IMG/VR virus record: IMGVR_UViG_3300035703_000059
Span: 1 to 64,000 of that record
Source: a virus
Length of the DNA stretch: 64,000 nt
Strand: one strand, 5' to 3'
The position numbers were made by a program, and so were the translations under genes. A model generated the notes under the pieces. The model saw only the letters and a list, made by a program, of their open reading frames with translations. It was not told the DNA's origin and ran no database searches. Each line of letters opens with the position of its first letter. The first letter of the stretch is position 1. This document shows positions 51 to 64,000 of the stretch, piece by piece.

Positions 51-2447
51 ATGACGGGTCAGCAGAAAACCGTCTCGCCGGAGGCGCAAGACATTCTCGA
101 CCGCCTCCGCGAGCATTACCGGCAGCAAGGAAAAGCCGCCGCTGCCGCAAACTACAACCGGCACCTCAAGTCGTTCTTCTCATGGGCCGAGGGGCAGGGG
201 TACTCGGTCAAGACCCTGCCGCCCGACTCCGTCGAGACTTTCCTCGCGGCCAGCGGCCAGAAGGAGACGACGGCCTACGTCATGCGGACGCAGATCAAGA
301 GCGCGCTCCGTGAGGCCCACGCGGCTCTCGGCGTCGACTTCGCCCATCTGGAGTACCAGACCGGCAAGCCCCGCGCGGTCCGCCAAGTTCAAAAACAGCG
401 CGAGAAAGAGAAGCGCGCCGAGAAGCGCGCCGCCGCCCTCGACGGCCAACAGCCCACCTTCCTGTTCGACCCGCACGCCCACAACCCCGTCCCCCACTAC
501 GCAGAGGAACCTTCGATGCCCCACGACGTCACCCAGCCGGAACCCCCGGCACCCGCCCCCGCGACCCCGTACCCCACCGGGGCATCGGCCGGCGGGGCTG
601 CGGGACAGCCAATCGTCATTCAGATGCAACAGCCGCGTCCGGTCGCCCCTGCGGCCGTCACCAAGGGTCCGACGGCGACCGCGCAGTCGGCCCAGCGGGG
701 CATCGTCATCAACAACCACACGTTCACCGGCCCCTACGTCAAAATCAGCCGGATTGCCGATGGTTCTGAGCCGTTCGTCGCTCCCGGCACGGAGACGTTC
801 GTGACCACGCTGCCGGCCTCGCAGCTTGTGCCGCACGGCGACCTTGGGGCGTTCCTCCAGCAGTTCATCGTGCCGGGGCTGCGGCTCGCCTCGACGACCG
901 CACAGGTTCAGTTCGTATTCCACGAACTCAACGACCGCCGTCAGCCGACCGGCCGGCGCGACGAACTCGTCGTCTCGGTGCCGATGGGCGGTTCGATGTT
1001 CGGCGGCCAACCGGCCAGCGCCCCGGCGCCTTCGATGCCGTTCGGCGGCTCGCTCCACGGGATGCCGGCCCCGGCCCCGCAGTTCGACCCCGCGACGGCG
1101 TACCTGCTCAAGAAGCTCGACGAGGAGTCCGAGGGCGCGAAGCGCCGGGCCGACGACCTCGCCGTCGAACTCAAGAAGGCGCAGGACGCGCAGACGCAGT
1201 TCCTCCTCATGCAGCAGATGCAGCGGGAGAACGACCTGCGGCGCGACTTGGAGGAGCGCAAGATTCGCGAGATGGAGCGCGCCCAGCAGACCGCCCTCGC
1301 GGCTTCGATGCCGCCCCCGATGCCGACCATCCTGCCGCCGGAGCCTAAGTCCGACGGGACTGCGGAACTCGTCCGCGCGCTGACCGAGTCGAACGCGCGG
1401 GTCTTTGAGGTCATGCTCGCCCGCACGAATCAGCCGGCGCCGGTCGCGCCGCAGCAGAAGGACGCCGCCGAGTGGGTGCTGCCGCTGATTTCGCAGATGC
1501 AGCAGCAGGCGATGGCCCAGCAGCAGGCGAACCAGCAGATGCTCGTTCAAATCATGCAGGGCAATCAGCAGTTCATGCAGGCGCTCGTCACGCGTGAATC
1601 GCCGGAGGTCAAACTCCTCCGTGACGAGTTGCGGGAGGTGAGGGCTGCGGCCAACGCCCCAAAAGGGGATGACATCGAGGAGTTCGCCGAGAAGTTCCAG
1701 AAGCTCAAGGTCGTCGGCGAACTGATGGGTGGCGGCGGCGGAGCCGCGACCACGGGCCTCATCGATAGCCTCGTCGCCAACGCGGACACCATCGGCGCTG
1801 GCGTCGCGAAGATTATCGCTGCCGCGAAGCCGACCCCGCGTCTGCCGATGCGCGCGCCGACGCCGATGGCCGGGGCGCCCATCCAGACCCAGCAGGCGCT
1901 CCCGCCCGGCCAGCCGCAGCAGCAGGCCGCGCCGCCGCCGAAGCCGGAGGTCGCCATCGCGCATCTGGCTGCCGCGTCCGAGGCCGCGCTCGCGGGCGAC
2001 CAAGAGCAGAAGGTCATCGACGAGGTCGTGTCGATGGTGCAGTCGCTCATGGGGCTGCCGCACCCGTTCCCGACCATCGGCCGCAAGGTGCTGGAGGCGC
2101 TGAAGCAGGTGAAAGACCACGATGACCTGTTCTCGGTCGCCAAGCATCTGTGGGTCGCCACCGGGCAGGAAATCGATAAGAAGGCGGCGCGGGCTATCGC
2201 CGACGTGTTCTACAAGTGGTTCCCGCTCGTCCACCAGAGCCTCTTCGGCGAGATGCGCTACCTCGACGGGCAGAGCGAGGAGATGTTCGCGGCCATCATG
2301 GCGGCGGGCGTCCCCCAGCCGGCAGAGGAGCCGGAGTCGGATGAGGAGTCCGGCGAGGACGGCGAGGACGACGGCGAGGAGTCGGAGGACGACGGCGCCA
2401 TCGATACTGCGGCTGTCGATGACAACGCCAAGACCATCGGTGGATAG
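51..2447 (+). CDS. Large protein: N-terminal integrase SAM/core-binding-like helical domain, P/Q/M-rich and coiled-coil middle, acidic tail
   Basis: 798-aa ORF with RBS AAGGAG upstream. The N-terminus (NYNRHLKSFFSWAEGQG...VETFL...TTAYVMRTQIKSAL) resembles an integrase N-terminal domain. No catalytic R-H-x-x-R-H-Y residues are visible. Confidence 0.6.
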   Translation: MTGQQKTVSPEAQDILDRLREHYRQQGKAAAAANYNRHLKSFFSWAEGQGYSVKTLPPDSVETFLAASGQKETTAYVMRTQIKSALREAHAALGVDFAHLEYQTGKPRAVRQVQKQREKEKRAEKRAAALDGQQPTFLFDPHAHNPVPHYAEEPSMPHDVTQPEPPAPAPATPYPTGASAGGAAGQPIVIQMQQPRPVAPAAVTKGPTATAQSAQRGIVINNHTFTGPYVKISRIADGSEPFVAPGTETFVTTLPASQLVPHGDLGAFLQQFIVPGLRLASTTAQVQFVFHELNDRRQPTGRRDELVVSVPMGGSMFGGQPASAPAPSMPFGGSLHGMPAPAPQFDPATAYLLKKLDEESEGAKRRADDLAVELKKAQDAQTQFLLMQQMQRENDLRRDLEERKIREMERAQQTALAASMPPPMPTILPPEPKSDGTAELVRALTESNARVFEVMLARTNQPAPVAPQQKDAAEWVLPLISQMQQQAMAQQQANQQMLVQIMQGNQQFMQALVTRESPEVKLLRDELREVRAAANAPKGDDIEEFAEKFQKLKVVGELMGGGGGAATTGLIDSLVANADTIGAGVAKIIAAAKPTPRLPMRAPTPMAGAPIQTQQALPPGQPQQQAAPPPKPEVAIAHLAAASEAALAGDQEQKVIDEVVSMVQSLMGLPHPFPTIGRKVLEALKQVKDHDDLFSVAKHLWVATGQEIDKKAARAIADVFYKWFPLVHQSLFGEMRYLDGQSEEMFAAIMAAGVPQPAEEPESDEESGEDGEDDGEESEDDGAIDTAAVDDNAKTIGG

Positions 2448-2526
2448 GTAGAGTAGGCGTAAGTGTCGGAACGCGGGGAGTCGGCCACGGTGCCGGCTCC
2501 CCGTTTTTCGTGGTAGGCTGCGCGCC

Positions 2527-3246
2527 ATGCCGCTCCTTACCATCAAGCTGCAACGCGTTCCCAACGTCCTCGGCATCTATGGCAAGTCGAAGGACGAGTT
2601 CCCGCAGTCGGCGTCGTGGCTCCACCCGGACGCCGCTCGCGGGTTCGCGGCTCTGCAAGCCGGCCTCGGCCAGCGGGTGCGCGTTTCTGACGTGTTTCGG
2701 ACCGCTGAGCAGTCGCTCGCGGCGCGCGCCATGAAGTCCGGCGTTCAGCCGCCGGGGTTCTCGCTCCACAACTACGGCATCGCCATCGACATCCACACCG
2801 ACGCCATGCTCGCGGCGCTCAAGCTGGACAAGCCGGCCCTCGACAAGCGGTTCACCGAACACGGGTGGTTCTGCCACCGCAAGGACGGCAAGCGCGGCAT
2901 GGAGGATTGGCACTTCAACTTTCTCGGTGTCGGCGACGAAGCCGCGCCGTTCCTCGCGGCGAGCGCGAAGTCGTCGAACACGTCGGCCGCCGGGGATGCG
3001 AAAATCCGCGCGATTCACGGCGACGACTTGACGCTGACCCCTGCGGAGGCGCAGGAAGCGCTGAAAAAGCTGCGGATGTACCACGGCGACCTCGACGGCA
3101 AGTTCGGTCCCCGGTCGCAGCAGGCGCTCATGGTGTTCCAGCGGGCGTGGAAGCTCGTTGACTCCGGCGTGCTGGACGCCAAGACTGAGCGAACACTCGC
3201 CTACGTCACCGCGAATCGCGTCGAACTCGACCCGGCGTCGGTCTAA
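2527..3246 (+). CDS. Endolysin: M15/VanY-type peptidase plus C-terminal peptidoglycan-binding domain
   Basis: Zn-peptidase motifs SLHNYGIAIDI and EDWHF. PG_binding_1 motif DGKFGPRSQQALMVFQRAW-KLVDSGVLDAKT. Confidence 0.9.
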   Translation: MPLLTIKLQRVPNVLGIYGKSKDEFPQSASWLHPDAARGFAALQAGLGQRVRVSDVFRTAEQSLAARAMKSGVQPPGFSLHNYGIAIDIHTDAMLAALKLDKPALDKRFTEHGWFCHRKDGKRGMEDWHFNFLGVGDEAAPFLAASAKSSNTSAAGDAKIRAIHGDDLTLTPAEAQEALKKLRMYHGDLDGKFGPRSQQALMVFQRAWKLVDSGVLDAKTERTLAYVTANRVELDPASV

Positions 3247-4043: not shown

Positions 4044-4430
4044 ATGCCGTTCACGATCATCGAGGAACGCCCCTGCCCGCGCCCGACGCTCGACGTCGCG
4101 CTGAACCTGCGAAACCGGAAGAAGGCCATCGACGTCGCGATGTACGGTCCCGCGAACCCGCGACTGCCGAACGACGGCTACTGGAAGAAGCTCGCGGGCG
4201 TGTGGGGAATCTCGCCGGGCGAGGCGCGGACCATGCGCTGCGGGAACTGCGCGGCCTTTGACATCAAGCGGGAGACGCTGGACTGCATCCGCAAGGGCAT
4301 CGGGCGCGACGGCATCGACCCGCAGGACACCGTGGTCGCGGCCGAACTCGGCTACTGCCGGATGTTCGCCTTCAAGTGCGCGGCGTCGCGGACGTGCAGC
4401 GCATGGGTCGTCGGCGGCCCCATTCGTTGA
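4044..4430 (+). CDS. Cys-cluster hypothetical phage protein (CxNC...C...CxxW)
   Basis: RBS AAGGAG. Motifs RCGNCAAF, GYC and KCAASRTCSAW. Confidence 0.7.
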   Translation: MPFTIIEERPCPRPTLDVALNLRNRKKAIDVAMYGPANPRLPNDGYWKKLAGVWGISPGEARTMRCGNCAAFDIKRETLDCIRKGIGRDGIDPQDTVVAAELGYCRMFAFKCAASRTCSAWVVGGPIR

Positions 4431-4438
4431 GGTGGCGC

Positions 4439-4912
4439 ATGGCCCATCGATGCACGAACGGCCGGACCGACCCCGCGCTGTGGGAGCGCGCCAAGCGGGA
4501 CGCTGTAAAGCGTCTCGGTGGGCGCCATTCGGCGCGCGCGATGCAGCTTGCGGGCAAGCTGTACCGCGAGCGCGGGGGCGGGTACTGCGGTGCGCGGACC
4601 AAGGCGCAGCGGAAGCTGTCGAAGTGGACGCGCGAGGATTGGCGGACCTACACGGGCGAGAAGGCGTGTCGGGGCGCGAAGTGCGACCGATACCTGCCGG
4701 CGGCGGCATGGGAGCGCCTGTCGCCGCAGGAGGCGGCGGCGACGCGGTCGCGCAAGCTGAAAGCGCGGCGGCAGTATGTCCCGAACGCCCCGGCGGCGCG
4801 AGCGGCGGGGAGGCGAGCGCGCGGGGTCGGGGCGCTGCCTTCGATGGATTGGCGCAGCGTTGCGGTGTCGGCGCTTGCGGGGATGGCGCTCATCGCTTTC
4901 GCGCGCCGGTAA
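4439..4912 (+). CDS. DUF5872-like basic protein with C-terminal TM anchor
   Basis: SARAMQL...YRERGGGY...LSKWTREDW...RYLPAAAWERLS matches the family pattern as I recall it. Hydrophobic C-terminus. Start taken at ATG 4439 after GAGG. Confidence 0.7.
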   Translation: MAHRCTNGRTDPALWERAKRDAVKRLGGRHSARAMQLAGKLYRERGGGYCGARTKAQRKLSKWTREDWRTYTGEKACRGAKCDRYLPAAAWERLSPQEAAATRSRKLKARRQYVPNAPAARAAGRRARGVGALPSMDWRSVAVSALAGMALIAFARR

Positions 4913-6325: not shown

Positions 6326-8377
6326 ATGGCTAACGTGAGGAAGTTTCTCTTTTTCGACCCGGCGACGGGTCAGTATCGGGAGCAGACCGCGACCGATACC
6401 ATTCAGATCGCGAACGGCGTTGACGCGCTGGACGCGGTGAACAAGAGCCAGCTTGACGCCGTTGCGGCGGCGGCGGATGCGGCTGTCGAGGCCGAGGAAG
6501 CCCGCGCTCTCGCAGCCGAGGCGGCTCTCCAGAGCGCCATCGATGGCGTGGCGGCCGACCTGTCGGACGAGGTTGATCGCGCGACTGCGGCCGAGCAGGC
6601 CATCGCGGCTGACCTTGCGACCGAGGTTTCGGATCGCGAGGCGGCGATCACGGCTCTCGACGCGGAACTGTCGGCCGACATTCTGGCCGAGCAGACCCGC
6701 GCGCAGGCGGCCGAGGCTTCGCTTCAGTCGGCGCTGACGCAGGAGATCGCGGACCGCGTCGCTGGCGACCTCACCGAGAAGAACCGGGCCGAGGCTGCCG
6801 AGGCTTCGCTGCTGTCGGCGATCAACACCGAGGTCAGCGACCGTATCGCTGCGGTGAGCGCCGAGGCTTCGGCTCGCGCTGCGGCCGACGCGACCGAGCT
6901 GGCTCGCGCGCAGGCGGCGGAAGCCGACCTTCAGTCGCAGATCACCGCCGAGGTTGCGGCGCGTGAGGCCGCGATCACGTCGCTCAACAGCACCCTGTCG
7001 GCGGCCATCACCGCCGAGGAGACGGCCCGCATCGCTGCGGACGGCGTGCTCCAGAGCAACATCGATGATGAGGAGTCGGCTCGTATCGCTGCCGACGCGA
7101 CCCTCACGTCGGACCTCGCGGCCGAGGTTGCGCGTGCGACCGCCGCCGAGAGCGTGCTGACCGCCGACCTCGCGTCGGAGGTTGCGGCTCGCGAGGCCGC
7201 CGTCTCTGCCGAGGCGCTGGCTCGCCAGAACGCCGATGACGGCCTTGCCGCCGACATCGCGGCCGAGGAAGTGCGTGCGCTGGCCGCCGAGGGCGTCCTT
7301 CAGTCGAACATCGATGCCGAGGAAGCGGCGCGTATCGCGGCCGTTTCGGCCGAAGAGGCCGCTCGCATCGCTGGCGATGCCGCGACCCTCGCGTCGGCGA
7401 ACGCCTACGCCGATAGCCTCGTCGAAGGCATCTCGTTCAAGTCGTCCGTGCGCGTCGCGCTGCCGACTTCGTTCGATATGGGCGGCAGCACGATCAATAT
7501 GCCCGCCGACTACGCCAGCGTGGCGTCGGCCCTCGGTACTGAGGCCGGCGACCGCATCCTGCTGATCCAGCCGGAAGGTTCGGCTGGCGCCATGAACGCC
7601 GGTATCTACGTCGTGAACAGCGGCAACACCGCGCTCGTTCGCGCGCCGGATATGGCGGTTGGCTCTGACGCGTCGGGCGCCTACGTCTACGTCGAAGAGG
7701 GCGTGGTCGGAAGCACCATCCCGCACGCCAACCCCGGAACGTCGTTCGTTTGCGCCAACGTCAAGGGTGGCGACATCGTTGGCACCGACCCGCTCGATTT
7801 CGCGGTGTTCCAGCGCGTCGAGAACCTGACCTTCTCCAACGGGGTTCAGAAGATCGGCCTCGACGTTTCGGCCAAGGTCAAGACGAACGGCGCCATCGGC
7901 GCGGGCAGCAACGGGCTTGAGCTGCTGTTCGACACCACCCTGCTGAAGATCGATGGCAGCGGCAACGTCACCATCAACGACCCGCTCGCCGGTGGCCCGC
8001 TGAACATCGCGGACAGCCTGCACGGCCACAGCCACACCAGCGCGGTGCGGCCGTCGACCGCTGCCAACGAGGCGCACTTCGCCAAGTTCAACGGCGACAG
8101 CGCGACGTGGGACTCCTCGTCCTGCATGGCGTTCGTGGAATCGAAGGACGGCAGCGGCACCGCCGTCATCGTGTTCAGCGGCAAGGGCGAGCACTCGTCG
8201 CTCTCCACCGCGCTGTCGGCCTTCTCGGTCGGCGACACGGTGTACGTCGGCGGCGTTGCGGGCGAGTTCTCGGACTTCGCCAGCGTGCCGAGCGGCAAGT
8301 GGGCCATCCCGGTCGGCAAGAAGATGGCGTCGAACGCCCTCCTCGTCGACATCGGAACGGCGCTGCTGAAGGCGTAA
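6326..8377 (+). CDS. Long fibre protein: Ala/Glu coiled-coil stalk, phage-fibre beta domain, C-terminal cement-like domain
   Basis: Repeats ExxRAxAAExxL in 11-, 18- and 22-aa units. Then KSSVRVA...GDRILL...NAGIYVV...VYVEEG, a motif common in phage fibres. Confidence 0.75.
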   Translation: MANVRKFLFFDPATGQYREQTATDTIQIANGVDALDAVNKSQLDAVAAAADAAVEAEEARALAAEAALQSAIDGVAADLSDEVDRATAAEQAIAADLATEVSDREAAITALDAELSADILAEQTRAQAAEASLQSALTQEIADRVAGDLTEKNRAEAAEASLLSAINTEVSDRIAAVSAEASARAAADATELARAQAAEADLQSQITAEVAAREAAITSLNSTLSAAITAEETARIAADGVLQSNIDDEESARIAADATLTSDLAAEVARATAAESVLTADLASEVAAREAAVSAEALARQNADDGLAADIAAEEVRALAAEGVLQSNIDAEEAARIAAVSAEEAARIAGDAATLASANAYADSLVEGISFKSSVRVALPTSFDMGGSTINMPADYASVASALGTEAGDRILLIQPEGSAGAMNAGIYVVNSGNTALVRAPDMAVGSDASGAYVYVEEGVVGSTIPHANPGTSFVCANVKGGDIVGTDPLDFAVFQRVENLTFSNGVQKIGLDVSAKVKTNGAIGAGSNGLELLFDTTLLKIDGSGNVTINDPLAGGPLNIADSLHGHSHTSAVRPSTAANEAHFAKFNGDSATWDSSSCMAFVESKDGSGTAVIVFSGKGEHSSLSTALSAFSVGDTVYVGGVAGEFSDFASVPSGKWAIPVGKKMASNALLVDIGTALLKA

Positions 8378-8520: not shown

Positions 8521-10746
8521 ATGGCAAATCAAAAACTCGTCACGGTTGTTTCGGTCGTCGATCTTGCGTCGAGCGCATCGATTACGCTCCCGCACGACTT
8601 GTCGTCTGGCGGTGTCGCCGTCTCTCCAACGATGGTCGCGCCGGACCGCGCGACGCCCATCGTCGTCGAGGCCGTGACCGCGACGAGCGTGACGTTCCGA
8701 AACGACTCGGCGGTGCAGACGAGCGCGAATTTCCGCTTGTCCTACGAGCTTTCTCTCATCGCTGACCCGACGACGGTGACGCCGATTTACTGGGAGGGCG
8801 TGCCGGTCGGTGGTGGCGGGGGCGTGCCGGGGCCGGTGGGTCCGCAGGGGCCGCAAGGTATTCAAGGTCCGGCCGGTCCGCAGGGTATTCAAGGCGCGCA
8901 GGGTGCTCCCGGCGCGAGCGTGACCATCGAAGGCAGCGTTGCGACGGTGGGCGACCTTGCGTCGAAGCCACAGGTTTCGGGGCAAGGTTGGATCGTGCAG
9001 GCCGACGGCGACCTGTACGTTTGGGACGCGTCCTCGTCTGCGTGGGAGAGCGTCGGTCAGATTGTCGGTCCGCAGGGTCCGCAGGGCATCCAAGGTGTGC
9101 AGGGCATCCAAGGTCCGCAGGGTGTCGCGGGTACGCCGGGTGCGGCTGCAACGGTGGCCGTCGGCACGGTGACGGGCCTGCCCTCCGGTTCGTCGCCGAC
9201 CGTGGCAAACGCGGGAACGGCGACTGCGGCTGTGCTGAACTTCGGCATCCCGGCTGGCGCAACGGGCGCAACGGGTCCGGCAGGCCCGGCGGGTCCGGCG
9301 GGTGCGCCGGGAACGAACGCGGTCGTTGGTGTTCCGGCCGGGTCTTACGGTGACGGGGCCAACGTCCCTGCGATTACCGTCAACTCGTCGAATCAGATCA
9401 CGAACATCACCCCGACGCCCATCACGCCTGCCGGTATCGGTGCGGTTCCGACCTCGCGGACCGTCACGGCCGGATCGGGGCTGACCGGCGGCGGCGATCT
9501 TTCGGCCAACCGAACGCTGGCTATCGCGGCTTCCGGCGTCACGCCGGGGTCGTACACGGCGGCGAACATTACGGTTGGTGCCGACGGGCGCGTCACGGCG
9601 GCTTCGTCGGCGGTCGCCTTGCCGGCGAACGTCGTCGACATCCTCCAGTATTTCGGCGACGGGTCGGACGGTGACGTGACCCTGCCGACGAGCGGCACGG
9701 GCATCACGACGCTGACGAAGCCCATGTTCTACAACAGCCTCACCATCCCCGCGAACACGTCGCTTCGGACGAACGGTTGGCCGGTGCTGGTGAAGGGGAC
9801 GCTGGATGTTTCGGCGACGAACCGTTCGCCGGCCATTTTCCCCTACGAGATCAATCCCGGCGACGCTGGCGCCACGCCGACAGCAGGTGGTCTTGGCGCG
9901 ACGACGGCTCCCGGCCTCGGACCGGCGTCAGTAGGCGGTGGTAACGGCGGTGCTGGCGCGACGACAGCGGCATCTGGCTCTCCGGGGTCTGGCGGCGCGG
10001 CCTACTCAAACTCCCTCGGCGCTTCGGGCGGCGGGGGCGGAACGGGCGGGCGGTCGTCGGGCGGGGGCGCGGGCATCGGAAACGCGGGCGGCGCGGGCGG
10101 AACACCGGCGGGGGGGACGCCAATTTGGAGTCTTTCGGGGTCAATCCCACTACCGCTTCAGCCCATCAGCCGGGTCGCGTCAACCACACAGACCTTCCCG
10201 ACGTGCGCGGGTGGCGGAGCCGGCGGCGGAGGCGGCGGGTCGAACGACACGAACGCCGCTGGCGGCGGCGGCGGCGGCGGCGCTGGTGGCAAGGCGCTCA
10301 TTCTGTGGGCGAACACCGTCTCGCGCGGCGCCGGAACAGCCATTCCGTGCATCGCTGCGAAGGGCGGTAACGGGGGTAACGGCGGCAACGCGAACCCGGC
10401 AGCGGGTGTCGGTGGTGGCGGCGCGGGTGGCGGTGGCGGAGGTGGCGGATTCGTCATCTTCGGCTACCTGTCCGTGCCGGGAACGCCGGTGGCCGGATTC
10501 ATCGATGCATCGGGTGGCGACGGTGGAAACGGCGGGAACGGCCGCGCGCTCTCCGGGTCGAACTACGGCCTCGGCGGGCAGGGTGGGCAGGGCGGACGTG
10601 GCGGCGTCATTCTGTCCTACGACATGACCGCCGGAGTTGTGACGGCGGTGGATGATCGAGGTACGGCCGCAGCCACGGCAACGACGGCGACGAACTCATC
10701 CGGCACGCTCGGAACGCAGGGCGTGCAGTCGAAGGTCACGATCTAA
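8521..10746 (+). CDS. Collagen-repeat and glycine-rich fibre/spike protein
   Basis: GPQGPQGIQG triplet repeats, long poly-Gly C-terminal region, N-terminal domain shared with the 3256 ORF. Confidence 0.85.
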   Translation: MANQKLVTVVSVVDLASSASITLPHDLSSGGVAVSPTMVAPDRATPIVVEAVTATSVTFRNDSAVQTSANFRLSYELSLIADPTTVTPIYWEGVPVGGGGGVPGPVGPQGPQGIQGPAGPQGIQGAQGAPGASVTIEGSVATVGDLASKPQVSGQGWIVQADGDLYVWDASSSAWESVGQIVGPQGPQGIQGVQGIQGPQGVAGTPGAAATVAVGTVTGLPSGSSPTVANAGTATAAVLNFGIPAGATGATGPAGPAGPAGAPGTNAVVGVPAGSYGDGANVPAITVNSSNQITNITPTPITPAGIGAVPTSRTVTAGSGLTGGGDLSANRTLAIAASGVTPGSYTAANITVGADGRVTAASSAVALPANVVDILQYFGDGSDGDVTLPTSGTGITTLTKPMFYNSLTIPANTSLRTNGWPVLVKGTLDVSATNRSPAIFPYEINPGDAGATPTAGGLGATTAPGLGPASVGGGNGGAGATTAASGSPGSGGAAYSNSLGASGGGGGTGGRSSGGGAGIGNAGGAGGTPAGGTPIWSLSGSIPLPLQPISRVASTTQTFPTCAGGGAGGGGGGSNDTNAAGGGGGGGAGGKALILWANTVSRGAGTAIPCIAAKGGNGGNGGNANPAAGVGGGGAGGGGGGGGFVIFGYLSVPGTPVAGFIDASGGDGGNGGNGRALSGSNYGLGGQGGQGGRGGVILSYDMTAGVVTAVDDRGTAAATATTATNSSGTLGTQGVQSKVTI

Positions 10747-10993: not shown

Positions 10994-11767
10994 ATGGCGA
11001 ATGGATGGAATCCCCTCATCGGCATCGGCTTCACCAGCCTCGGCATTGGCTACCTGTGGGAAGCCTACTCTCGTAACAAGACCGGGACGCCGGCAACACC
11101 GGCGGAGCCGATCACGACGAACGGCCTGCGGAGGCGGCTTCCCCCCGGCTCAACGGGCCTCGGCTACGCGGAGCCGAAAAAGGGAGGCATCCGCTCGATG
11201 AAGATGCACGCGGTCGGCACCATCGAGGACCGTGAGCGGTACATTCGCGAGCAGATCAAGAAGGACAGCCTCAACCCGAAGGTCATCAGCGCGGCGCGCG
11301 CGGTGGTGTCGGGCCGCTGCCCGAAGGCCGACGGCGGCGTGATGTGGTGCGTCAAGCCGAAGGACTCGATGGGCGAGATTCGGCTGATGTTCAAGGCCGT
11401 CGTCGACCCGAACTCGGCGCTCGCGGTGCGCTACACGCGCGACCACCCGACCGTCGACCTCTTTCCGTCGAACGAACTGCTGGACCGTCTCCCCGCAGAG
11501 GACTGCGACGGGATGGTGGTGCGGCTCGGCGCGCTTCTGCGGGCCATTGGATTCCACGTTCGCACGCGCATTGTGGCGCCGGCCGGAAAGCCGAAACAAT
11601 GGGCGCACATCTATCTGATGGTCGCGCCTGTGCCGGGTGTCGCCGACGGATGGTTGCCGCTGGACCCGACGGAGCCGGAGCGCGCGTATCGTGCGCGAAA
11701 CGCGCCGTTTTGGGAGCCGGGAACGGACCAGATCGATCCGCTGAAACTGGACGGGCCAATCATCTAA
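10994..11767 (+). CDS. Membrane-anchored transglutaminase-like cysteine enzyme (putative protease)
   Basis: N-terminal TM. Catalytic-type triad in EDCDG...ALLRAIG...WAHIY...WLPLDPT. Confidence 0.85.
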   Translation: MANGWNPLIGIGFTSLGIGYLWEAYSRNKTGTPATPAEPITTNGLRRRLPPGSTGLGYAEPKKGGIRSMKMHAVGTIEDRERYIREQIKKDSLNPKVISAARAVVSGRCPKADGGVMWCVKPKDSMGEIRLMFKAVVDPNSALAVRYTRDHPTVDLFPSNELLDRLPAEDCDGMVVRLGALLRAIGFHVRTRIVAPAGKPKQWAHIYLMVAPVPGVADGWLPLDPTEPERAYRARNAPFWEPGTDQIDPLKLDGPII

Positions 11768-12110: not shown

Positions 12111-13316
12111 ATGTCGTGTGAGGTCGTCGCCGGAGAAGCCGCAGACGGTTCCGTCGTGTTGACGGACAATCAATGCCGCACGCTCGACATTCAGAACGTG
12201 CTGGCGTTGTCCGACGGGGCCGGAAACCACGCGGCCTGCGGCTCCAAGGCGTGCGTCTACGAGACGAGCGACCCGTCCACGCTGGTCAAGGTGACGAGCG
12301 ATTGGATGGACGTGTGGGCGCTGAAAAAGACGGCCGGGATGGCGGACGTCGTTCCCGTGAAGCGGATGTTCAAGCTGAAGGGGAAGCGGCGTTCGGTGAA
12401 CGGAGTGGCCGAGAACGCGCTGTACGCCATCGAGGTCGCCCGCGCGCAGCCGCTATCGAAGCGCGACGAGTTGTTCCTCAACACGACGGCGTTCGACGCG
12501 ATCACGCTCTACTTCGACCAGATGCTCCTCCCCGGCGTCTCGCCGAAGAGCGTCATTGATTTTCGCGAGTCGTGTCGAAAGACGGTGGATGCGGCGCGGC
12601 GCGGCGGGAAGCCGTACATGACGACGCCGCAGGCCGACCAAGCGGCGTGCGAGGCCGTGACGAGCGACGCGCTCGATGCGGTGGAGCGGATGGCGAAGCG
12701 CGGCGTCTACTTCACCGACGCCCACGCGGGAAATTGGGGCCGGTACAACGGGCGGCTGGTGGCGCTCGATCTTGGGCTTTCAGCACCGCGAGGGACACGG
12801 ACCCCGAAGGTGCCAGAACTTGAAGGGATGGGCGCGATGAACGACCGGAAGATGCAAAACATGGTGCTGTTCGGCGCGGGCGCGCTGATTCTGTTCCTGC
12901 TTCTGCGGCCGAAGAAGGCCAAGGCGGAGACGTCGCTGCCCGGCAGCGGCACCGGCAGCGGGGAGTCGATCTCGTCGCTCGGCGAGCGGCCCATCGCGCT
13001 CGACCCCGCGTTCGCGAGGGCTTACGGCCCCGTCAAGGCGTACACGGTTCGCCGGGGTGACAGCCTGTCGAGGATCGCCCAGCGCGAGTTTATGACTGAG
13101 GAACTGTGGCCGTTCCTGTGGGACATCAACCGGACGGCGACGCAGTTCGCGGTTCCCGATGCGCTGGAAATCGGCCAGACCATCTACGTCCCGACGCGAG
13201 GCTCAACGAATCGGGCATACTACACGCGGTTCGACGCGCACAAGACGTGGTACATGAGCGGCGGTCGCGGTGTTCCGCCGGAGTCTGTTTCTTCGTTCAC
13301 CGTCATCGCGCTCTGA
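12111..13316 (+). CDS. Protein-kinase-like domain / TM helix / LysM fusion
   Basis: Kinase-like motifs GSKACVY, LVKV, FTDAHAGN and DLG. TM VLFGAGALILFLLL. LysM motif YTVRRGDSLSRIA...INR...PDALEIGQTIYVP. Confidence 0.8.
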   Translation: MSCEVVAGEAADGSVVLTDNQCRTLDIQNVLALSDGAGNHAACGSKACVYETSDPSTLVKVTSDWMDVWALKKTAGMADVVPVKRMFKLKGKRRSVNGVAENALYAIEVARAQPLSKRDELFLNTTAFDAITLYFDQMLLPGVSPKSVIDFRESCRKTVDAARRGGKPYMTTPQADQAACEAVTSDALDAVERMAKRGVYFTDAHAGNWGRYNGRLVALDLGLSAPRGTRTPKVPELEGMGAMNDRKMQNMVLFGAGALILFLLLRPKKAKAETSLPGSGTGSGESISSLGERPIALDPAFARAYGPVKAYTVRRGDSLSRIAQREFMTEELWPFLWDINRTATQFAVPDALEIGQTIYVPTRGSTNRAYYTRFDAHKTWYMSGGRGVPPESVSSFTVIAL

Positions 13317-18921: not shown

Positions 18922-18996
18922 TGGCTGGCGGGGTAGGAGTCGAACCTACGGCCACGCGATTAACAGTCGCGCGCTCTGCCTCTGAGCTACCCGCCA
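18922..18996 (-). tRNA. tRNA-Asn(GTT) with encoded CCA
   Basis: Reverse complement TGGCGGGTAGCTCAGAGGCAGAGCGCGCGACTGTTAATCGCGTGGCCGTAGGTTCGACTCCTACCCCGCCAGCCA. It has a 7-bp acceptor stem, D arm, CT-GTT-AA anticodon loop and GTTCGA T-loop. Confidence 0.95.
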
Positions 18997-22067: not shown

Positions 22068-22148
22068 GTCAACCCCTACACGCCCCCACATTGACTTTCG
22101 AAGATGAACTTCGAAAGGATGGGGGCAGCAGAAAGAAGGAGACACCCC

Positions 22149-26631: not shown

Positions 26632-26642
26632 GGAGAATCGAT

Positions 26643-27950: not shown

Positions 27951-27960
27951 GAGGCGTGTC

Positions 27961-28218: not shown

Positions 28219-28230
28219 CCGGGAGAAGCC

Positions 28231-28818: not shown

Positions 28819-28827
28819 GGGAACGCG

Positions 28828-32533: not shown

Positions 32534-32534
32534 G

Positions 32535-34664: not shown

Positions 34665-34747
34665 TCGACGCCCTGCACCACTAGGGTCGATGAACGCAGG
34701 GGTCGTCGGACAGGTGCCGACGGCCCCTCGTCTTTACGGAGGAATCG

Positions 34748-36000: not shown

Positions 36001-36046
36001 GCTCGCGGGGACACCGCGCAACTGATTGCGCCAACAGGAGTCATCG

Positions 36047-51837: not shown

Positions 51838-52136
51838 CAGTCGTCTCCCCGGTTGATCAACGTCACCGCGTCCTCGGCCCCCGACTCCAACTCCGCGATG
51901 CGCTCGGACAATTGCGCCACAATCGCGCGGTACGTCTCAATCTGGTGTTGCACCGGGTCGGGGCAGTCGTCGGTGTATCCCGGCCAATTCACCGCCGAGA
52001 ACTGGTCCGCGCCCCACAGGTAGAGGAAATACTCCCCGAACTCCATCGACTCACACAGCGCGGCCACGATCCGCCCGATGTAGTTCGTCTTCTCCTCATG
52101 CGTCATTCCGTCCGTCACTTCTTTGTCCAGCAGCAT
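51837..52136 (-). CDS. Hypothetical protein
   Basis: Translationally coupled to the polymerase gene. Confidence 0.6.
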   Translation of the reverse strand: MLLDKEVTDGMTHEEKTNYIGRIVAALCESMEFGEYFLYLWGADQFSAVNWPGYTDDCPDPVQHQIETYRAIVAQLSERIAELESGAEDAVTLINRGDD

Positions 52137-54787
52137 CAGACCTCACTCCATCGAAGCCCAATCTTGGGCTTCGCCGCAAAGGACACGTCCGGCAAACCCG
52201 GCACGGTCCGGTTCATCGCTTCCTTGATCATTCGCGCGACCGTGTTCGCATCGCACTCGCACCCCGGCGGGCAGAATCCGAACTCGCGCTCCTTCTCGAT
52301 CACCTTGCCGTCCGCATCCAGCGGCCGGTACTCGTCGTGCGGACACGGCACCTCAAACGTCAACGCGTCGTGGCATTGGTTGACGAGGCCCGTCCCCGGC
52401 CCCCACAACTCGCACTTGAGCGGACCTTCGACGAGGTCGAACGTCGCCATGTGGATGATGTGCGCGCCCGCGCTCTGGACGCCGAAATTGATGATCTCGT
52501 TGAACTTCTCGCCGTCGAGGAAGTCACGCCGACGGCCGAGAACCGGGTCGACGATGTACCCCACCGTCCGATAGGTGTCCAAGCACTCGTCCCACCACTT
52601 CTGAAGCTGCGGAATCTCCCGCAGCCACCGCTTCCGAAGCGTGGCGACTTGATTCAGCGTCAAGTCGGGGTACATCAGCGTGCCGTCCGCGTTCTCCGCG
52701 CTCGTCACCAGCCCATGCACCGTCTCGTCGCCGGAGCCATAGAACGACGCGTAAGCGATGCTCTTCGCGATTTTTCGCAGCTTGTCCCATTGGTCCGACT
52801 TCGGCACCAGCCCGTCGAACTGCTTTCCGAACATCATCGATGCCGTCTGCGCGTGCGGATCGCCGCCAGCCGAAAACGTCTCCAAGTAGCGCGGGATTTG
52901 GGCCACCGACGCGATGATCCGAAGCTCCAACTGGTCCGCGTCCGCGCCCACCAGCACCCGCCCCGGCTCCGCTTTCACCAGCGCCCGCAGGTGCTTCGGG
53001 AAGTTCTGGGCGTTCGGATTCGATGACGACAGCCGGCCCGACGTCGTCCCGTGCGCGTTGTAGTCCGGGTGAATCCGCCCGTCCGGCAGAATGAGGCCGC
53101 GAGCCGCCTCATCCTGCTCGTCCTCGCTGCGAAACTGCACCCCATCGACCGGCTGGCCGTAGGGGACGAGCCGCGTGACGTAGGTGCCGTACTCCTTCGC
53201 CACCTTGCGATACCGTCGCAAGGAATCGATGAACTTCACGATGTTCTCGCGGTCCCGGTTCTGCGTCCGCAGCAGGCGAAGCGACTCGTCCGACGTCGAG
53301 GGGTCGCCCAGCTTCGTCATCTCGGCCGGCGTCAGCCCCCACTTGTCGAAAAGCAGGTCGCGAATCTGATAGGTGCTGTTCGGATTGAGGTTCGGATTCT
53401 CGGCGTTGACGCGCGTCTCCGCGAGGTAGTCGGCGATCTTGACCCGAAGCTCGTCCGACACCTTGTTCCGCAGCGGCCGGTCCACCCACATCCCCGTCCG
53501 ATGCAGGTCCGCGCAAATCGCCTGCACCCGATGGTCGAATCCCACGACGTTTTCCTGCCGCCGCAGCTTCACCGCGTCCGCCAGCTTCGGCATCACGCGC
53601 GCCGTCACCACGCAGTCGACGGCACAGTAGGTCGTCAACTCCTCGTCGGTCTGCGCCACCTCCGCCGTGTGCGCGGCCTTCCATGACGTGACGTCGGTGT
53701 AGACGCTGCCGATGTACCCCAGCTTGTGCGGCAGTTCGCTCTCGACGCTGCGGTGCAAAAGGATGGTGTCGAGGAGCGGCTTCGGCGTGACGCCGAAATG
53801 CTGCTCGATGACGATGCGGTCGAAGTACCCCGCGTTGTGGCCGACCTTCAGCTTCGTGTCATCGATGAAGAAGTCCCGCAGGATGCCCCGCAGCCGCAGC
53901 AGGTCCGACGCGGTGTACCACGGCGGATCGACGAGCGAACCGTTCGGGCCTTCGATGCTCTTGAGCGAGACGACGATGGACGCGTTCTCGTTCGCGATGC
54001 CCACGCACTTGAGTTCCGCGATGAGCGGGTCGTCGAACGTCGTCTCGACGTCGTAGATGTACGGGATGTCCGTGCGCGCGAGGAACGCCTCGACCTCGTC
54101 GGGCGACGGCGTCAAATCGATGTACGGGTGCTGCCAGCCCAGCCCACCCCGGAACCATCGGAACGCGCGTGACAGGTCGCTGCGGAACGCCCGCGTCCAG
54201 CGCCGCGCCCGCAGCACGAACGCGGGGTGCAGCGTCGGCAGCACCTTCACGTCCTTCGGCTTGTCGCCGCCGGTGATGAAGTTCCCGATGACGTCGAACC
54301 GGCCCTCGACCGGGCCACCGCGAATCTCGGTGACGCTCGCCGCCTGCCCCGTCACCGCTTGGAAGGCGATCTTCCCCAGCGTGATGATGTTCTTCGTCTG
54401 GCCGATGTCGTGCATCAGCCTCGGTCGGCAGCAATCGATGGGGTGCGGCAGGGGGTCTTCTTTCGCCGCGATCCGCTTCTTGTTGTCCCGCGACAGCTTC
54501 ACCAGCACGCGGTCCAGTTCGTTCTCTGGTGGCCGGCACGCGAGGGCCGTCGTGATCGAGACGGCGCCGCGCGGGATGCCCACCGCCTTCAGCGACTCGT
54601 TGAACTCGATGCCTGCCGAGTCGACGAGCGGGCGCTGCTCCTCGACGTCCTTCTCACGCGGCGACTCCGTCACGACCACCGCGACAGAACCGGGCCGAAT
54701 CTCGGCCGGGACCGGGACACCCGCGCGCGCCTTTCGCAGAACGCACTCGTCGCATCGCGCGCCGTCGTCTCGCGGGTCGTAGATCAT
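52136..54787 (-). CDS. Family A DNA polymerase with N-terminal family-4 UDG-like domain and 3'-5' exonuclease
   Basis: UDG-like CDEC...TESP...CRPP.N...LHPAFVLR. Exonuclease DVET, HNAGYFD and YCAVD. Polymerase GRLSSSNPNAQN, DQLELR, RKIAKSIAYASFYG and HDAL. Confidence 0.95.
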   Translation of the reverse strand: MIYDPRDDGARCDECVLRKARAGVPVPAEIRPGSVAVVVTESPREKDVEEQRPLVDSAGIEFNESLKAVGIPRGAVSITTALACRPPENELDRVLVKLSRDNKKRIAAKEDPLPHPIDCCRPRLMHDIGQTKNIITLGKIAFQAVTGQAASVTEIRGGPVEGRFDVIGNFITGGDKPKDVKVLPTLHPAFVLRARRWTRAFRSDLSRAFRWFRGGLGWQHPYIDLTPSPDEVEAFLARTDIPYIYDVETTFDDPLIAELKCVGIANENASIVVSLKSIEGPNGSLVDPPWYTASDLLRLRGILRDFFIDDTKLKVGHNAGYFDRIVIEQHFGVTPKPLLDTILLHRSVESELPHKLGYIGSVYTDVTSWKAAHTAEVAQTDEELTTYCAVDCVVTARVMPKLADAVKLRRQENVVGFDHRVQAICADLHRTGMWVDRPLRNKVSDELRVKIADYLAETRVNAENPNLNPNSTYQIRDLLFDKWGLTPAEMTKLGDPSTSDESLRLLRTQNRDRENIVKFIDSLRRYRKVAKEYGTYVTRLVPYGQPVDGVQFRSEDEQDEAARGLILPDGRIHPDYNAHGTTSGRLSSSNPNAQNFPKHLRALVKAEPGRVLVGADADQLELRIIASVAQIPRYLETFSAGGDPHAQTASMMFGKQFDGLVPKSDQWDKLRKIAKSIAYASFYGSGDETVHGLVTSAENADGTLMYPDLTLNQVATLRKRWLREIPQLQKWWDECLDTYRTVGYIVDPVLGRRRDFLDGEKFNEIINFGVQSAGAHIIHMATFDLVEGPLKCELWGPGTGLVNQCHDALTFEVPCPHDEYRPLDADGKVIEKEREFGFCPPGCECDANTVARMIKEAMNRTVPGLPDVSFAAKPKIGLRWSEV

Positions 54788-56620: not shown

Positions 56621-57523
56621 TCAGCCCAACTTCGGCTTCGGCTTGTCCGTGAACATCGACAGGACGTCGGCTTTCGCGCGCATCAGCACCGCGCGGTCCA
56701 GCGAATCCCGCAACACCCAGCGGACGTGTAAATCGTTGTCGGTCTGCTCTCTCGCGAGTTCGATGGCCTCCGCGACCAGCCCCGACTCATTCGCCGGGTC
56801 GTTGAACATCGCGACGGCCAGCGCCTCGACGAGTTCTTCCTGCCACTCCAGCTTCGGGGCGCGCGGTATGACGTACCCCGCGCTCCGCAGAATCTCCGCC
56901 ACGTTCATCGGCGCCCGGTCCGGCGTGACGCCGTGCCTGTCTTTCGTGACCCACGACGGGTCATCGATGGTGCAGCGGTAGCACCCGTGCCAGCCTCGCC
57001 GCGTCTGATCGAACGCGGCACGCAGCACCACGTCGCAGGCCGTCGGCACGTCCTCTGGCAACCGCCCCGGCAGGCGCGGACCGCCGCGAACGAACACCCC
57101 GTTGACGGTCCGGGGCGTCGATTCGTGCGCCGTGAGGACAACGTGCATCCCCGCGTGCCTCGCGGTGTCGCGGAACTCCAGCACCGCGTCTCGCAGCGCG
57201 CCCCACAGCTTGAACCCCGAAAACTTCTTCTCAAGCTGTGCAACCGTCGACTCTGCGAGGAGCGAGAAGTCATCGACGATGATGGCCGAGTACCGCTTGT
57301 CCTTGCCGCGCTCACGCACGATCTTGGTCGCGTCGAGTATCGATGCGGCTTCCGTGTGGTCGGGGACGTGGCCGACGACCAGATGGGCCGGCTTGATTGC
57401 TCCCGGTGGGGCGACGAACAGCCCCGTGGGGAACGAGAAGAGGAGGTCCGTGGTCTTTCCGATGCCCGATGGCCCGTAGATCGCGACCACCGCGTTCGCG
57501 CCAGAGAAAGGAGCCGCGCTCAT
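56621..57523 (-). CDS. Sak4-like (AAA_24) recombination ATPase
   Basis: IYGPSGIGKTT, AIIVDDFS, VVLTAHE, CDVV and KDR. Confidence 0.88.
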   Translation of the reverse strand: MSAAPFSGANAVVAIYGPSGIGKTTDLLFSFPTGLFVAPPGAIKPAHLVVGHVPDHTEAASILDATKIVRERGKDKRYSAIIVDDFSLLAESTVAQLEKKFSGFKLWGALRDAVLEFRDTARHAGMHVVLTAHESTPRTVNGVFVRGGPRLPGRLPEDVPTACDVVLRAAFDQTRRGWHGCYRCTIDDPSWVTKDRHGVTPDRAPMNVAEILRSAGYVIPRAPKLEWQEELVEALAVAMFNDPANESGLVAEAIELAREQTDNDLHVRWVLRDSLDRAVLMRAKADVLSMFTDKPKPKLG

Positions 57524-61998: not shown

Positions 61999-62758
61999 CA
62001 CTTGTCCCCCTTGTCGAGTTCCGTGATGAGCGCGTCGGCGTAGCGCACCGCTTCCGACGCGTGCCACTCGATGTCGAGTCCGGTCAGATTCTCCTTCGAA
62101 TTCGCCAGAATCCCCTGCATCGCCGCCGTCGCGATGCGCTCACGCCGCCCTGCTTCCGGCGCGGCCACGCGCAGCTTCTCGATCTCGGCCTTCAGCGTTT
62201 CGGCTTCCTGCCGGACCGCGTAGACCTCGTTGTCCCGCTCATGGACGCCCATAATCGCCGCGCTACCCGCCTCACACGCATCTGCGAGTCCCGGCATCTT
62301 CACGTCGTTTCTCAGCCACGACGCCGCCTGCTTCAGCTTCCCCGCCATATCCTCATGCCACGGTGTCATCACTTCTCCCCCGTCGTCTGTTCCAGAATCT
62401 CTGCCGCCTTCGCACACGCCGCGTCCGAGTCCGCAAACTCACCCGGCGCCGTCACCGTTCCGTCGGGCCAGTAGACGTTCAGCACCCACGTTTTCAGCGG
62501 CGTCGGCAACACCTCAAACCGCAACCGGCGCCCGTAGTGGTAGGCCATGAGTCGGAACGGGCGCCCGCGAGTGTCGTTCCGACTGTGCCAACGCAGAATC
62601 GGTTTCCCCTCCAGCTCCTCGTCAATCTCTTGGATCAACTCCTCATACATCGGAACGATGCTATCGATGGGCCGGCAGATCGAAAACGAGTCGTCGGTGT
62701 CGTCGAGGCACAGCTTCGCTCGACACAGCAGTTCCTCCAGCCTCTCTTCCCGCGTCAT
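61998..62758 (-). CDS. Two hypothetical ORFs (61998-62369, 62369-62758)
   Basis: The first ends RRERIATAAMQGILAN...AVRYADALI, a common small-phage-protein motif. Confidence 0.6.
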
Positions 62759-63582
62759 CACTCCTCCACCGTCGCCGTAATCACGGCACTCTCGCCCCAC
62801 CGACAAATCTCATACGCCTCGCACGTCCCGTAGGCCGTGACGCACGTCTGCTCCGACAACGCCTTCGGCCAATCCCACGGGTCTGTGTCCGACAACGAGT
62901 CGATGACCCGCCGCGCGTGCGCCACCGACAACGTGAACTTCTGCCGGGCCACCGGCGCGGGGTCCACGACCTGCCTCGACATCTCGCCGGACAGCGAGAC
63001 GAGATTCAGCTTCACGCCGCCGAACTCGGAGCCGTAGACCGCCGCTCCGAAGTTCTGCATCCCAAGGAACTGCCCCGACAACGTGTACCGCAGCGGAATC
63101 TTGGCATCGATGCGCCCGACGGTCTTGTGGTCCCAAATGTAGACCTTGCCGTTCGGCTCCCGCACGACGAGGTCGAGCCTCTGCGTGAACGGCTGTCCCG
63201 CAATATCCGCGCGGAACACCTCTTCGATGGCCATCGGCTCCACGCGCTCCGACGCGTAGTGCGCCGCGTACTTGCGGTAGAGCAGGTGGATTTCCTCGAC
63301 GTATGCCTCGCCGCCAATCTTCTTCGCCGTCTCGACCACCGCGTCATACGGCAGCGCCCACTCGCCGGGGTCACGGCCCTCTTGCTGCGACTGCATCCGC
63401 GCGTAGTGCTGCGCGAGCGCCGCGTGCATCAGCGACCCTCGCAGCAGCGGCGCCGACTTGGTCTTTTGCAGCACGTTGAGCCGGAACTTGTAGGCGAACA
63501 ACTGCGGACACCGCAGCGCCGTCTCGACCGCGTGCCAACCCCATTCCCCCGACGAGCCGGCATCGATGATTTTCCCGGTCAT
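62758..63582 (-). CDS. PD-(D/E)XK Cas4/RecB-like exonuclease
   Basis: N-terminal CP, GSLMH, RLDLV, WDHKT, QFLG and C-terminal C...C..C..C (Fe-S staple pattern). Confidence 0.88.
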   Translation of the reverse strand: MTGKIIDAGSSGEWGWHAVETALRCPQLFAYKFRLNVLQKTKSAPLLRGSLMHAALAQHYARMQSQQEGRDPGEWALPYDAVVETAKKIGGEAYVEEIHLLYRKYAAHYASERVEPMAIEEVFRADIAGQPFTQRLDLVVREPNGKVYIWDHKTVGRIDAKIPLRYTLSGQFLGMQNFGAAVYGSEFGGVKLNLVSLSGEMSRQVVDPAPVARQKFTLSVAHARRVIDSLSDTDPWDWPKALSEQTCVTAYGTCEAYEICRWGESAVITATVEE

Positions 63583-63970
63583 TTACCCTCCGTATTCTTC
63601 GGGACGTAGCGATCCATCTTCGTCTCGACCGAGAAGGGGCTGTTCGCCAGCCCCAGCGCGCGCTGAAGTTCGCGCACGCGCCCGACGAGACGGTGGACCG
63701 TCTCGACTCCCGCGCCGTTGTACCGGGTGGCGTTGATGGCAATCTCGTTGAGTTCCTGCTCTGAAATCATGATTTGTCCTCCGGCGTCGGTAGGGCGCGC
63801 AGTTCTTCGGCTATGTCATCGGCACCCCACCCAAAGGACGCCTCGTTGCACACCCTCAGAGACGCCTCGCGCATCGCTTCCGCGCCGCGCTGGTAGGCTG
63901 CTGCTTCAGCGCGCTTTCGCTGGCCGGCTCTCTCAGCAAAGCCATCCCATATCGCATCGGCCTCCAGCAT
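63579..63970 (-). CDS. Two small hypothetical ORFs (63579-63770, 63767-63970)
   Basis: Overlapping stop/start junctions. Confidence 0.5.
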
Positions 63971-64000
63971 AAGCCGCGCGCGGTTTTCGGCGGCAGCAGC

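Follow-up and report, generated by a model that had tools for sequence, protein, structure and literature searches.

Predicted jelly-roll proteins and a tailed-phage-type replication module in a complete 75-kb viral genome

Introduction

Prokaryotic viruses that combine a jelly-roll capsid with an internal membrane are known with genomes of 10–44 kb. Here we describe IMG/VR virus record IMGVR_UViG_3300035703_000059, whose first 64,000 nucleotides (bases 1–64000, hereafter the window) had been interpreted, from sequence alone, as part of a very large tailless, membrane-containing virus in which a jelly-roll-like capsid module is joined to tailed-phage-type replication genes. At the centre of the analysis stands a row of three small genes, o28, o29 and o30, which lies in a plus-strand structural arm and encodes predicted jelly-roll proteins; a minus-strand arm carries the replication genes.

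Results and discussion

Genome organization

The record is one contig of 75,406 bp with a GC content of 66%. The same 127 bp open and close it, the collection class is direct terminal repeats, and CheckV completeness is 100% for the whole record. On account of this overlap and this estimate, the genome is complete at about 75.3 kb, with a map that is circular or terminally redundant, and all of it is open to examination; the size of at least 64 kb proposed earlier stands as a lower bound. Since most long open reading frames (ORFs) are spurious at 66% GC, genes were called by third-position GC (GC3), which yields 103 ORFs, 45 of them in the plus-strand arm (51–36328) and 58 elsewhere; the minus-strand arm starts at a tyrosine integrase gene and continues past the end of the window (Table 1). 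Pooled Pfam and PHROGs scans, cited below for several genes, give families and not the pooled member that matched.

A triad of predicted single jelly rolls

The three ORFs at 22864–24838 had been singled out as beta-rich capsid candidates of about 200 aa, a different fold at this place being named as the outcome that would speak against the idea; their length and beta-rich character are confirmed, and they model as jelly rolls. The top viral structure matches of the modelled o28 and o30 are capsid proteins of internal-membrane viruses, and the structure match (VIA) lists, which cover those two small proteins only, include no HK97-fold capsid protein. In its model, o28 resembles the capsid chain of SPV1 (Sulfolobus polyhedral virus 1) and is a candidate for the single-jelly-roll fold of that virus, a capsid fold that to our knowledge has been solved so far only from an archaeal virus. 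The paralogs o29 and o30 share 30% identity (E = 6e-11, BLASTP), their families aligning with a probability of 100% (E = 4.7e-40, hhalign); no sequence-profile similarity connects these two families to that of o28, although the folds agree. By prediction, the proteins of the triad are single jelly rolls, of the kind seen in SPV1 and Helvetiavirae, and not the double jelly rolls of PRD1 and PM2; no Pfam family of PRD1 P3 or PM2 P2 falls on any ORF, the larger beta-rich products o3, o6 and o15 not having been modelled. The nearest named protein-language-model clusters of o28, the PM2 P2 and PRD1 P3 capsid families at 0.76–0.77, are a lead only.

Run scores for a predicted complex of o29 and o30 are 0.59, 0.04 and 0.02, with a median below the mark, and give no verdict either way. 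Promoter and terminator sites around the triad are no commoner than in shuffled sequence. The o28 and o30 families comprise more than 110 public-metagenome clusters each, at 41–90% identity and all unannotated, and the o29 family includes 79 representative clusters, down to about 25% identity; a tblastn search of deposited phages with o1, o28, o30 and o35 gave no match.

A widespread freshwater and groundwater lineage

Three IMG/VR genomes are related to this one: one of 85.8 kb (G001, with terminal repeats and 100% complete), one of 57 kb and one of 52.6 kb that is flagged as a provirus, their family A DNA polymerases (PolA) being about 60% identical. In the structural arm only o5, o28, o29, o30 and o39 are kept in all four genomes, together with the replication core, and the other genes of that arm have mostly diverged beyond tblastn. 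This pattern, in which putative capsid genes are kept and other structural genes vary, is shared with the sphaerolipoviruses, whose capsid genes are conserved and spike genes variable (PMC4958249). A further 30 metagenome loci, with a GC content of 0.56–0.68, come mainly from groundwater and freshwater, some of them from 0.1-µm filter fractions, and the order o28–o29–o30 is fixed in every metagenome locus long enough to show order. In seven related loci, five of which are among the most divergent, a Pfam screen of the triad's surroundings yields wall enzymes, an OmpA-family protein, HNH, GNAT and collagen and nothing else; terminase, portal, HK97 capsid and tape-measure families are absent. 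Several members of the o28 and o30 families lie on metagenome contigs of 65–86 kb, and a discrete size class of 66–86 kb recurs on many contigs. The lineage is widespread in fresh water and groundwater and undescribed, with complete or near-complete genomes of about 66–86 kb; automatic pipelines label its protein clusters mostly Uroviricota, the tailed-phage phylum.

Because VanY, SLT, LysM and a sigma-70 region-4 protein are encoded here, and an OmpA-family protein in relatives, the host is probably a bacterium and probably diderm.

Compared with the present genome, G001 carries in addition (L005–L009) an intein splicing domain, an AAA_5/AAA_33 ATPase and a VWA-like DUF2201 protein, and its structural arm has four ORFs of 628–1163 aa at the place of this genome's fibres.

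Tailed-phage hallmarks and packaging motors

Terminase and portal genes are normally among the best-conserved genes of phages. The 36-kb structural arm had been described as free of terminase, portal, HK97 capsid, tape-measure and baseplate motifs, and Pfam and PHROGs scans of every ORF, covering both arms and the 11.4 kb outside the window, likewise return none of these. Six-frame searches with Terminase_6N and Phage_capsid are empty in the genome and its three relatives, with control genomes positive, and a Pfam screen of the complete G001 finds no tailed-phage or packaging family. An HK97 capsid, terminase or portal elsewhere, which the sequence-only reading had named as evidence that would contradict it, appears neither on the complete contig nor in G001, the absence of HK97 being a profile-level test. 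Nor does a whole-genome comparison reveal, among proteins kept in the four genomes, any large unassigned one that could be a hidden large terminase subunit (TerL), portal or major capsid protein, and the Walker-A-bearing proteins of the plus arm have chance motifs only. A lone "terminase small subunit" PHROG (E = 8e-6) stands beside excisionase and HTH_17 in a pooled scan, and one and the same protein is probably the source of all three.

A search of the flanking sequence had been suggested as a means of deciding between an A32-like packaging ATPase and a terminase with portal; it returned neither, a lack of ATPase in which the genome is like SPV1 (PMC8812541). No FtsK/HerA-A32 family falls on any ORF, and a six-frame Pox_A32 search is empty. 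A six-frame FtsK_SpoIIIE match was rejected as a packaging ATPase, being a 27-residue generic P-loop within the SMC-like o65.

Transmembrane (TM) segments are predicted in 20 of the 45 plus-arm proteins, or 24 at a looser threshold, against five of the 58 elsewhere (Fisher p = 4.5e-5), in line with the many TM ORFs, put at about 25, of the initial description; seven plus-arm proteins are anchored C-terminally. The several fibres expected from that description are represented by the coiled-coil o8 and the collagen-like o9, and the TM-anchored lytic transglycosylase is o36.

A link to SSIP-1, a cultured phage

Salisaeta icosahedral phage 1 (abbreviated SSIP-1) is a tailless, membrane-containing virus with a circular genome of 43.8 kb and two types of capsid protein (PMC6356626, PMC4958249). 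Among 50,697 phage records it is the sole match of o11, which aligns with SSIP-1 gp34 at 36% identity over 84 aa, with a Cys-His-Asp core (E = 1e-10, BLASTP). The latter is annotated as a virion structural protein of family Transglut_core; o11 is kept in both complete genomes, and in both the o11/gp34 relationship is reciprocal (E = 1e-35, jackhmmer). Iterative searches also join o36 to SSIP-1 orf54, itself an SLT protein (jackhmmer), and connect o27 weakly to the structural protein gp44 (jackhmmer E = 2.7e-5, pairwise E = 0.005), which precedes two structural proteins of about 210 aa, gp45 and gp46, in the way that o27 lies upstream of the triad. The resulting order o11...o27–triad...SLT parallels gp34...gp44–gp45/46/47...orf54 of SSIP-1. 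When the triad profiles are set against gp45–47 themselves, the best pair, gp46 and the o28 family, is non-significant (hhalign E = 0.014); gp46 has one homolog only in 5.8 billion proteins.

Another SSIP-1 virion protein, gp40 (L050 24775–25737), matches AAA_25 (E = 5e-11), KaiC and, weakly, AAA_24, and is thus RecA-like and not of the FtsK/HerA-A32 type expected of a PRD1-type packaging ATPase. No frame of this genome or of its relatives contains a homolog of gp40, and o72 was rejected as its counterpart, the P-loop alone being aligned.

SSIP-1 and the present lineage are alike in bacterial host, circular double-stranded DNA map, large genome for the virion type, the gp34/o11 pair, an SLT-type enzyme and gene order. 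They differ in that this genome is 1.7–2 times larger, has its own PolA-based replication module and comes from freshwater and subsurface rather than hypersaline habitats.

Genes of the two arms

Table 1 Features located in the window, with the evidence for each
Feature	Position	Strand	Evidence or remark
o1, 798 aa, opens structural arm	51..2447	+	weak N-terminal Phage_int_SAM_1 (Pfam, E = 0.007)
o2, endolysin: VanY-type D-Ala-D-Ala carboxypeptidase with PG_binding_1	2527..3246	+	pooled Pfam; H-x-x-G-x-A-x-D motif
o5, strongly basic, Arg/Lys-rich	4376..4912	+	kept in all relatives; weak DUF5872 match
o8, 683-aa Ala-rich coiled-coil fibre with globular C-terminal domain	6326..8377	+	YadA_stalk, weak (E = 2.7e-4)
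o9, 741-aa collagen-like fibre	8521..10746	+	phrog_819 and phrog_3904 (tail fibre), E = 1e-21
o11, transglutaminase-like Cys-His-Asp enzyme	10994..11767	+	homolog of SSIP-1 gp34
o13, membrane-spanning, C-terminal LysM	12111..13316	+	TM 247–265; phrog_380 endolysin at residues 299–370; LysM in pooled Pfam
tRNA-Asn (GTT)	18922..18996	-	ARAGORN; within plus-strand structural arm
o23, GDSL esterase/lipase, C-terminal TM anchor	20212..20904	+	Lipase_GDSL_2, E = 1.9e-13 (pooled scan); GDS motif
o24, HNH endonuclease directly upstream of capsid block	20901..21380	+	HNH_3, E = 9e-9
o27, Gly/Ala-rich membrane protein directly upstream of triad	22104..22784	+	present in 9 related loci
o28, 211 aa, single jelly roll, candidate capsid protein	22864..23499	+	most conserved structural gene
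o29, 190 aa, o30 paralog, candidate second capsid protein	23616..24188	+	BLASTP, hhalign to o30
o30, 212 aa, single jelly roll, candidate third capsid protein	24200..24838	+	predicted fold
o31–o45, about 15 genes of low conservation, with many TM-anchored or Cys-rich products	24838..36328	+	TM predictions; mostly not kept in relatives
o36, SLT lytic transglycosylase, N-terminal TM anchor	30928..31731	+	SLT, E = 5e-8 (pooled scan)
Tyrosine integrase at arm junction	36705..37760	-	Phage_integrase, E = 5e-12; 55–58% identity in all relatives
ParB-like protein	46703..47746	-	phrog_1033, E = 5.7e-20; ParB_N, E = 4.6e-4
o65, SMC/Rad50/arcadin-type ABC ATPase, coiled coil	49496..51163	-	AAA_23, SMC_N P-loop; NCBIfam arcadin-4, ASRP, Rad50; kept in all relatives
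Fusion of uracil-DNA glycosylase (UDG), 3'-5' exonuclease and family A DNA polymerase	52136..54787	-	DNA_pol_A, E = 1e-44; UDG, E = 5e-13; exonuclease, E = 1.5e-7
o72, Sak4-type RecA-like ATPase	56621..57523	-	AAA_24, E = 8e-16 over full profile; top-conserved lineage protein, 68–73% in relatives
Cas4-like PD-(D/E)XK nuclease	62758..63582	-	PDDEXK_1, E = 5.5e-11

At the start of the structural arm, o1 has long Pro/Ala/Gln-rich and coiled regions, an acidic tail and a G001 homolog at 43% identity, and matches nothing in a PHROGs scan or in tblastn of deposited phages. The basic o5 retains 52–68% identity in the three relatives (G001–G003) and several metagenome loci, and by composition it and the likewise conserved basic o26 are candidate DNA-condensing (nucleoprotein) components. 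The G-X-Y runs of o9 comprise 12, nine and seven triplets, and it is on these collagen repeats that the tail-fibre PHROG matches sit. A kinase assignment for the N-terminus of o13 was rejected, Pfam giving no match on its 246 N-terminal residues. Host lipids or acetylated wall polymers are possible substrates of the esterase o23.

The HNH gene o24 is kept at 47–69% identity in seven related loci, a stability that is unusual in genes of the homing type. The terminase of cos-type tailed phages is assisted by HNH proteins; here o24 is present though terminase is not detected in the genome. Downstream of the triad, Pfam and PHROGs scans of o31–o45 give SLT as the sole family, and these genes encode candidate membrane and vertex proteins. 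For o35 there are no usable neighbours, its Atlas model being poor (predicted local distance difference test, pLDDT, 0.33), and an IMG/VR scan is empty. A small Cys-rich protein on the plus strand (18517–18846), kept in G001, G003 and L020, matches HIPIP (high-potential iron-sulfur protein) weakly, at an E-value of 2.8e-4 that is marginal to the cut-off.

For the replication arm, the sequence-only reading is borne out in its PolA, Rad50-like, Sak4, Cas4-like, ParB-like and tyrosine recombinase genes but not in its DnaN-like and SSB genes, for which six-frame searches with Pfam DNA_pol3_beta and SSB are empty. The PolA fusion measures 883 aa, with the UDG-superfamily domain at residues 31–198, and the fusion is kept in all three relatives at 58–60% identity; it matches 2,321 of 50,697 deposited phage records, the best at 24–26% identity. 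Helix-turn-helix regulators are also present in this arm (Pfam, PHROGs, NCBIfam), and sequence searches of the PDB with o52 and o62 returned nothing. Outside the window the genome encodes an N6/N4 methylase, a SNF2 helicase, a DUF3987 protein and the sigma-70 region-4 protein. Genes typical of Caudoviricetes are PolA, Sak4, the Cas4-like nuclease, SNF2 helicase, DUF3987, ParB, HNH and the N6/N4 methylase; unlike the PolA modules of tailed phages, this one has the unusual N-terminal UDG fusion and no tailed-phage morphogenesis genes alongside.

A tailless virion predicted from gene content

We consider it probable, at roughly 0.6, that the genome is that of a tailless virus with a jelly-roll capsid, where taillessness, icosahedral shape, internal membrane, the capsid role of the triad and the mode of packaging are all inferred from gene content. 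The virus would be a temperate one of bacteria, its virion a tailless icosahedron with a shell made of the SPV1-like o28 and the paralogs o29 and o30, a pair comparable to the two capsid proteins found in viruses of the sphaerolipovirus type. Under the shell, an internal lipid membrane would carry about 20 virus-encoded membrane proteins, and the coiled-coil and collagen-like fibres would be placed at the vertices. The membrane-anchored SLT, the LysM protein, the GDSL esterase and the transglutaminase-like enzyme may serve entry or maturation, and the VanY endolysin exit. Because neither a terminase nor an FtsK/HerA-A32 ATPase was found, the DNA is suggested to be condensed by the basic o5 and o26 and enclosed while the particle assembles, on the pattern of SPV1, instead of being pumped in through a portal; such motor-less condensation is the least secure step. 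Replication would depend on a self-sufficient tailed-phage-like module of PolA-UDG, SNF2 helicase, DUF3987, Sak4, Cas4-like nuclease, SMC-like ATPase and ParB. The combination first proposed, a Varidnaviria-like virion with Caudoviricetes-like replication, is supported as a combination, but its label needs an update because since 2025 the single-jelly-roll viruses, Helvetiavirae, have been placed in the realm Singelaviria (PMC12714852).

Several points weigh against this interpretation. Structures have been modelled for two of the approximately 45 plus-arm proteins, and among the others o1, o6, o15, o31, o32 and o35 may include a strongly diverged HK97 capsid, portal or terminase. Jelly rolls are also found in accessory proteins of tailed phages, and the triad has no sequence-level link to any solved capsid protein (PDB profile searches with all three families) or to SSIP-1 gp45–47. 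SSIP-1, the closest cultured virus, has the virion ATPase gp40 (AAA_25), which makes the absence of a motor uncertain. Finally, a search of 185,579 species genomes with the candidate capsid families A3 and A4 gave no prophage.

The virion could be the same and yet its DNA be packaged actively, by a recruited or unrecognised ATPase such as o72 (AAA_24) or the SMC-like o65. That SSIP-1 gp40 is RecA-like (AAA_25, weakly AAA_24), that no protein of the lineage is better conserved than o72 and that motor-less condensation of 75–86 kb is unprecedented, the SPV1 genome measuring 20 kb, all fit such a scheme, which we nevertheless regard as unlikely: o72 matches the full Sak4 profile and has genes of recombination and replication around it, next to the Cas4-like nuclease and PolA, it has the P-loop alone in common with gp40, which is without a homolog here or in relatives, and o65 is an SMC/Rad50-type ABC ATPase.

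It also seems improbable that the genome belongs to a very divergent member of Caudoviricetes, in which HK97 capsid, portal and terminase have passed beyond profile detection and the triad represents decoration or cement proteins or receptor-binding domains. The divergent candidates listed above and the jelly rolls of tailed-phage accessory proteins leave room for this, but TerL, normally the easiest phage gene to detect, is missing from two complete genomes (Pfam), from the PHROGs scan of this one and from six-frame searches; the conserved core is the small triad, with no conserved large portal, TerL or capsid candidate, and the plus arm contains no Walker-A protein beyond chance motifs. The tail-fibre PHROG matches of o9 fall on its collagen repeats, and 20 TM proteins are atypical for a tailed-phage structural module.

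Very unlikely, finally, is a plasmid or integrative element with secreted carbohydrate-binding or surface jelly rolls and membrane proteins forming a transfer or surface apparatus, for although the genome has integrase and ParB-like genes and shows no classical capsid family, and cellular carbohydrate-binding proteins commonly contain jelly rolls (PMC8812541), the Pfam and PHROGs scans show no conjugation ATPase, relaxase or type IV secretion system family, whereas endolysin, SLT, fibres and HNH endonuclease, terminal repeats, a discrete size class of 66–86 kb, occurrence in 0.1-µm-filtered groundwater fractions and the homology of o11 to a virion protein of a cultured phage are all at hand.

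Comparison with other virus groups

As a tailless virus with a jelly-roll capsid, the lineage would stand nearest to SPV1 and Helvetiavirae in capsid type. [quoted passage not shown] With Portogloboviridae, the family of SPV1, the present genome agrees in its circular-type map, the lack of a detected ATPase and an SPV1-type single-jelly-roll fold in a putative capsid protein, and disagrees in its 75-kb size and bacterial host. As counterparts of VP1, the nucleoprotein that coats the DNA in that family, the basic o5 and o26 are candidates by composition. SPV1 itself infects a hyperthermophilic archaeon and has 20 kb and no polymerase, whereas this lineage has 75–86 kb with a full replication module, peptidoglycan enzymes, a sigma-70 region-4 protein and three jelly-roll genes including a duplicated pair. 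The searches run gave no sequence similarity to SPV1, whose sequences were not compared directly.

Like Helvetiavirae (Sphaerolipoviridae, Simuloviridae and Matsushitaviridae), the genome encodes two single-jelly-roll proteins in a putative major-capsid role, but the FtsK/HerA-A32 ATPase next to the capsid genes that defines that group is not detected, its genomes are smaller, at 16–31 kb, and a third jelly-roll gene, o28, is present here. Because it departs from Helvetiavirae in this ATPase and from Portogloboviridae in host and size, the lineage fits no existing family.

PRD1 has a virion-associated lytic transglycosylase. The predicted tailless membrane design and the many small membrane proteins are likewise shared with PRD1 and PM2 (Tectiviridae and Corticoviridae, Bamfordvirae), from which the lineage differs in that no double-jelly-roll capsid protein, A32-type ATPase, protein-primed PolB or inverted terminal repeats were found and the genome is 5–7 times larger. 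Among cultured viruses of this kind that could be checked, SSIP-1 has the largest genome, and the present one is about double its size.

Helvetiavirae have been proposed to originate from a portoglobovirus-like ancestor by capsid-gene duplication (PMC8812541). A tentative extension of the tailless reading, which we find possible but doubtful, is that the lineage is a mesophilic bacterial sister of Portogloboviridae and Helvetiavirae that has a duplicated capsid pair, never acquired the packaging ATPase and encloses 75–86 kb motor-less, by nucleoprotein condensation in a membrane vesicle. Were this true, it would be a living example of the stage at which a portoglobovirus-like ancestor had undergone capsid-gene duplication, with a genome four times that of SPV1, and a testable intermediate for that origin.

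As of 2016, extreme environments were described as the only known source of the single-jelly-roll branch (PMC4958249). If the tailless reading is true, the jelly-roll membrane architecture would extend to 75–86 kb and to ordinary fresh water and groundwater, and the SPV1-like capsid fold would extend to bacteria, joined to a full tailed-phage-type replication module; capsid type and replication module would then recombine freely at this scale. Should the Uroviricota labelling of protein clusters extend to genomes, tailless membrane phages would be under-counted in viromes.

Sequence motifs and minor features

The palindrome CATCGATG occurs 51 times in the whole genome (in the window at 3251–63561, and beyond) against 0.8 expected, and ATCGAT 114 times across the genome against 7 expected; CTCGAG, CAGCTG and CACGTG have zero copies against about 26 expected each. 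The pattern looks like restriction-site avoidance combined with one strongly favoured motif. The N6/N4 DNA methylase of the genome is encoded on the minus strand at L001:1817–2938.

The tRNA-Asn gene overlaps the 5' part of the called ORF 18864–19499, and the true start of this ORF therefore probably lies further downstream. Between the ParB-like gene and the operon of the SMC-like ATPase, 1.46 kb (47747–49209) are without any ORF of coding-type GC3.

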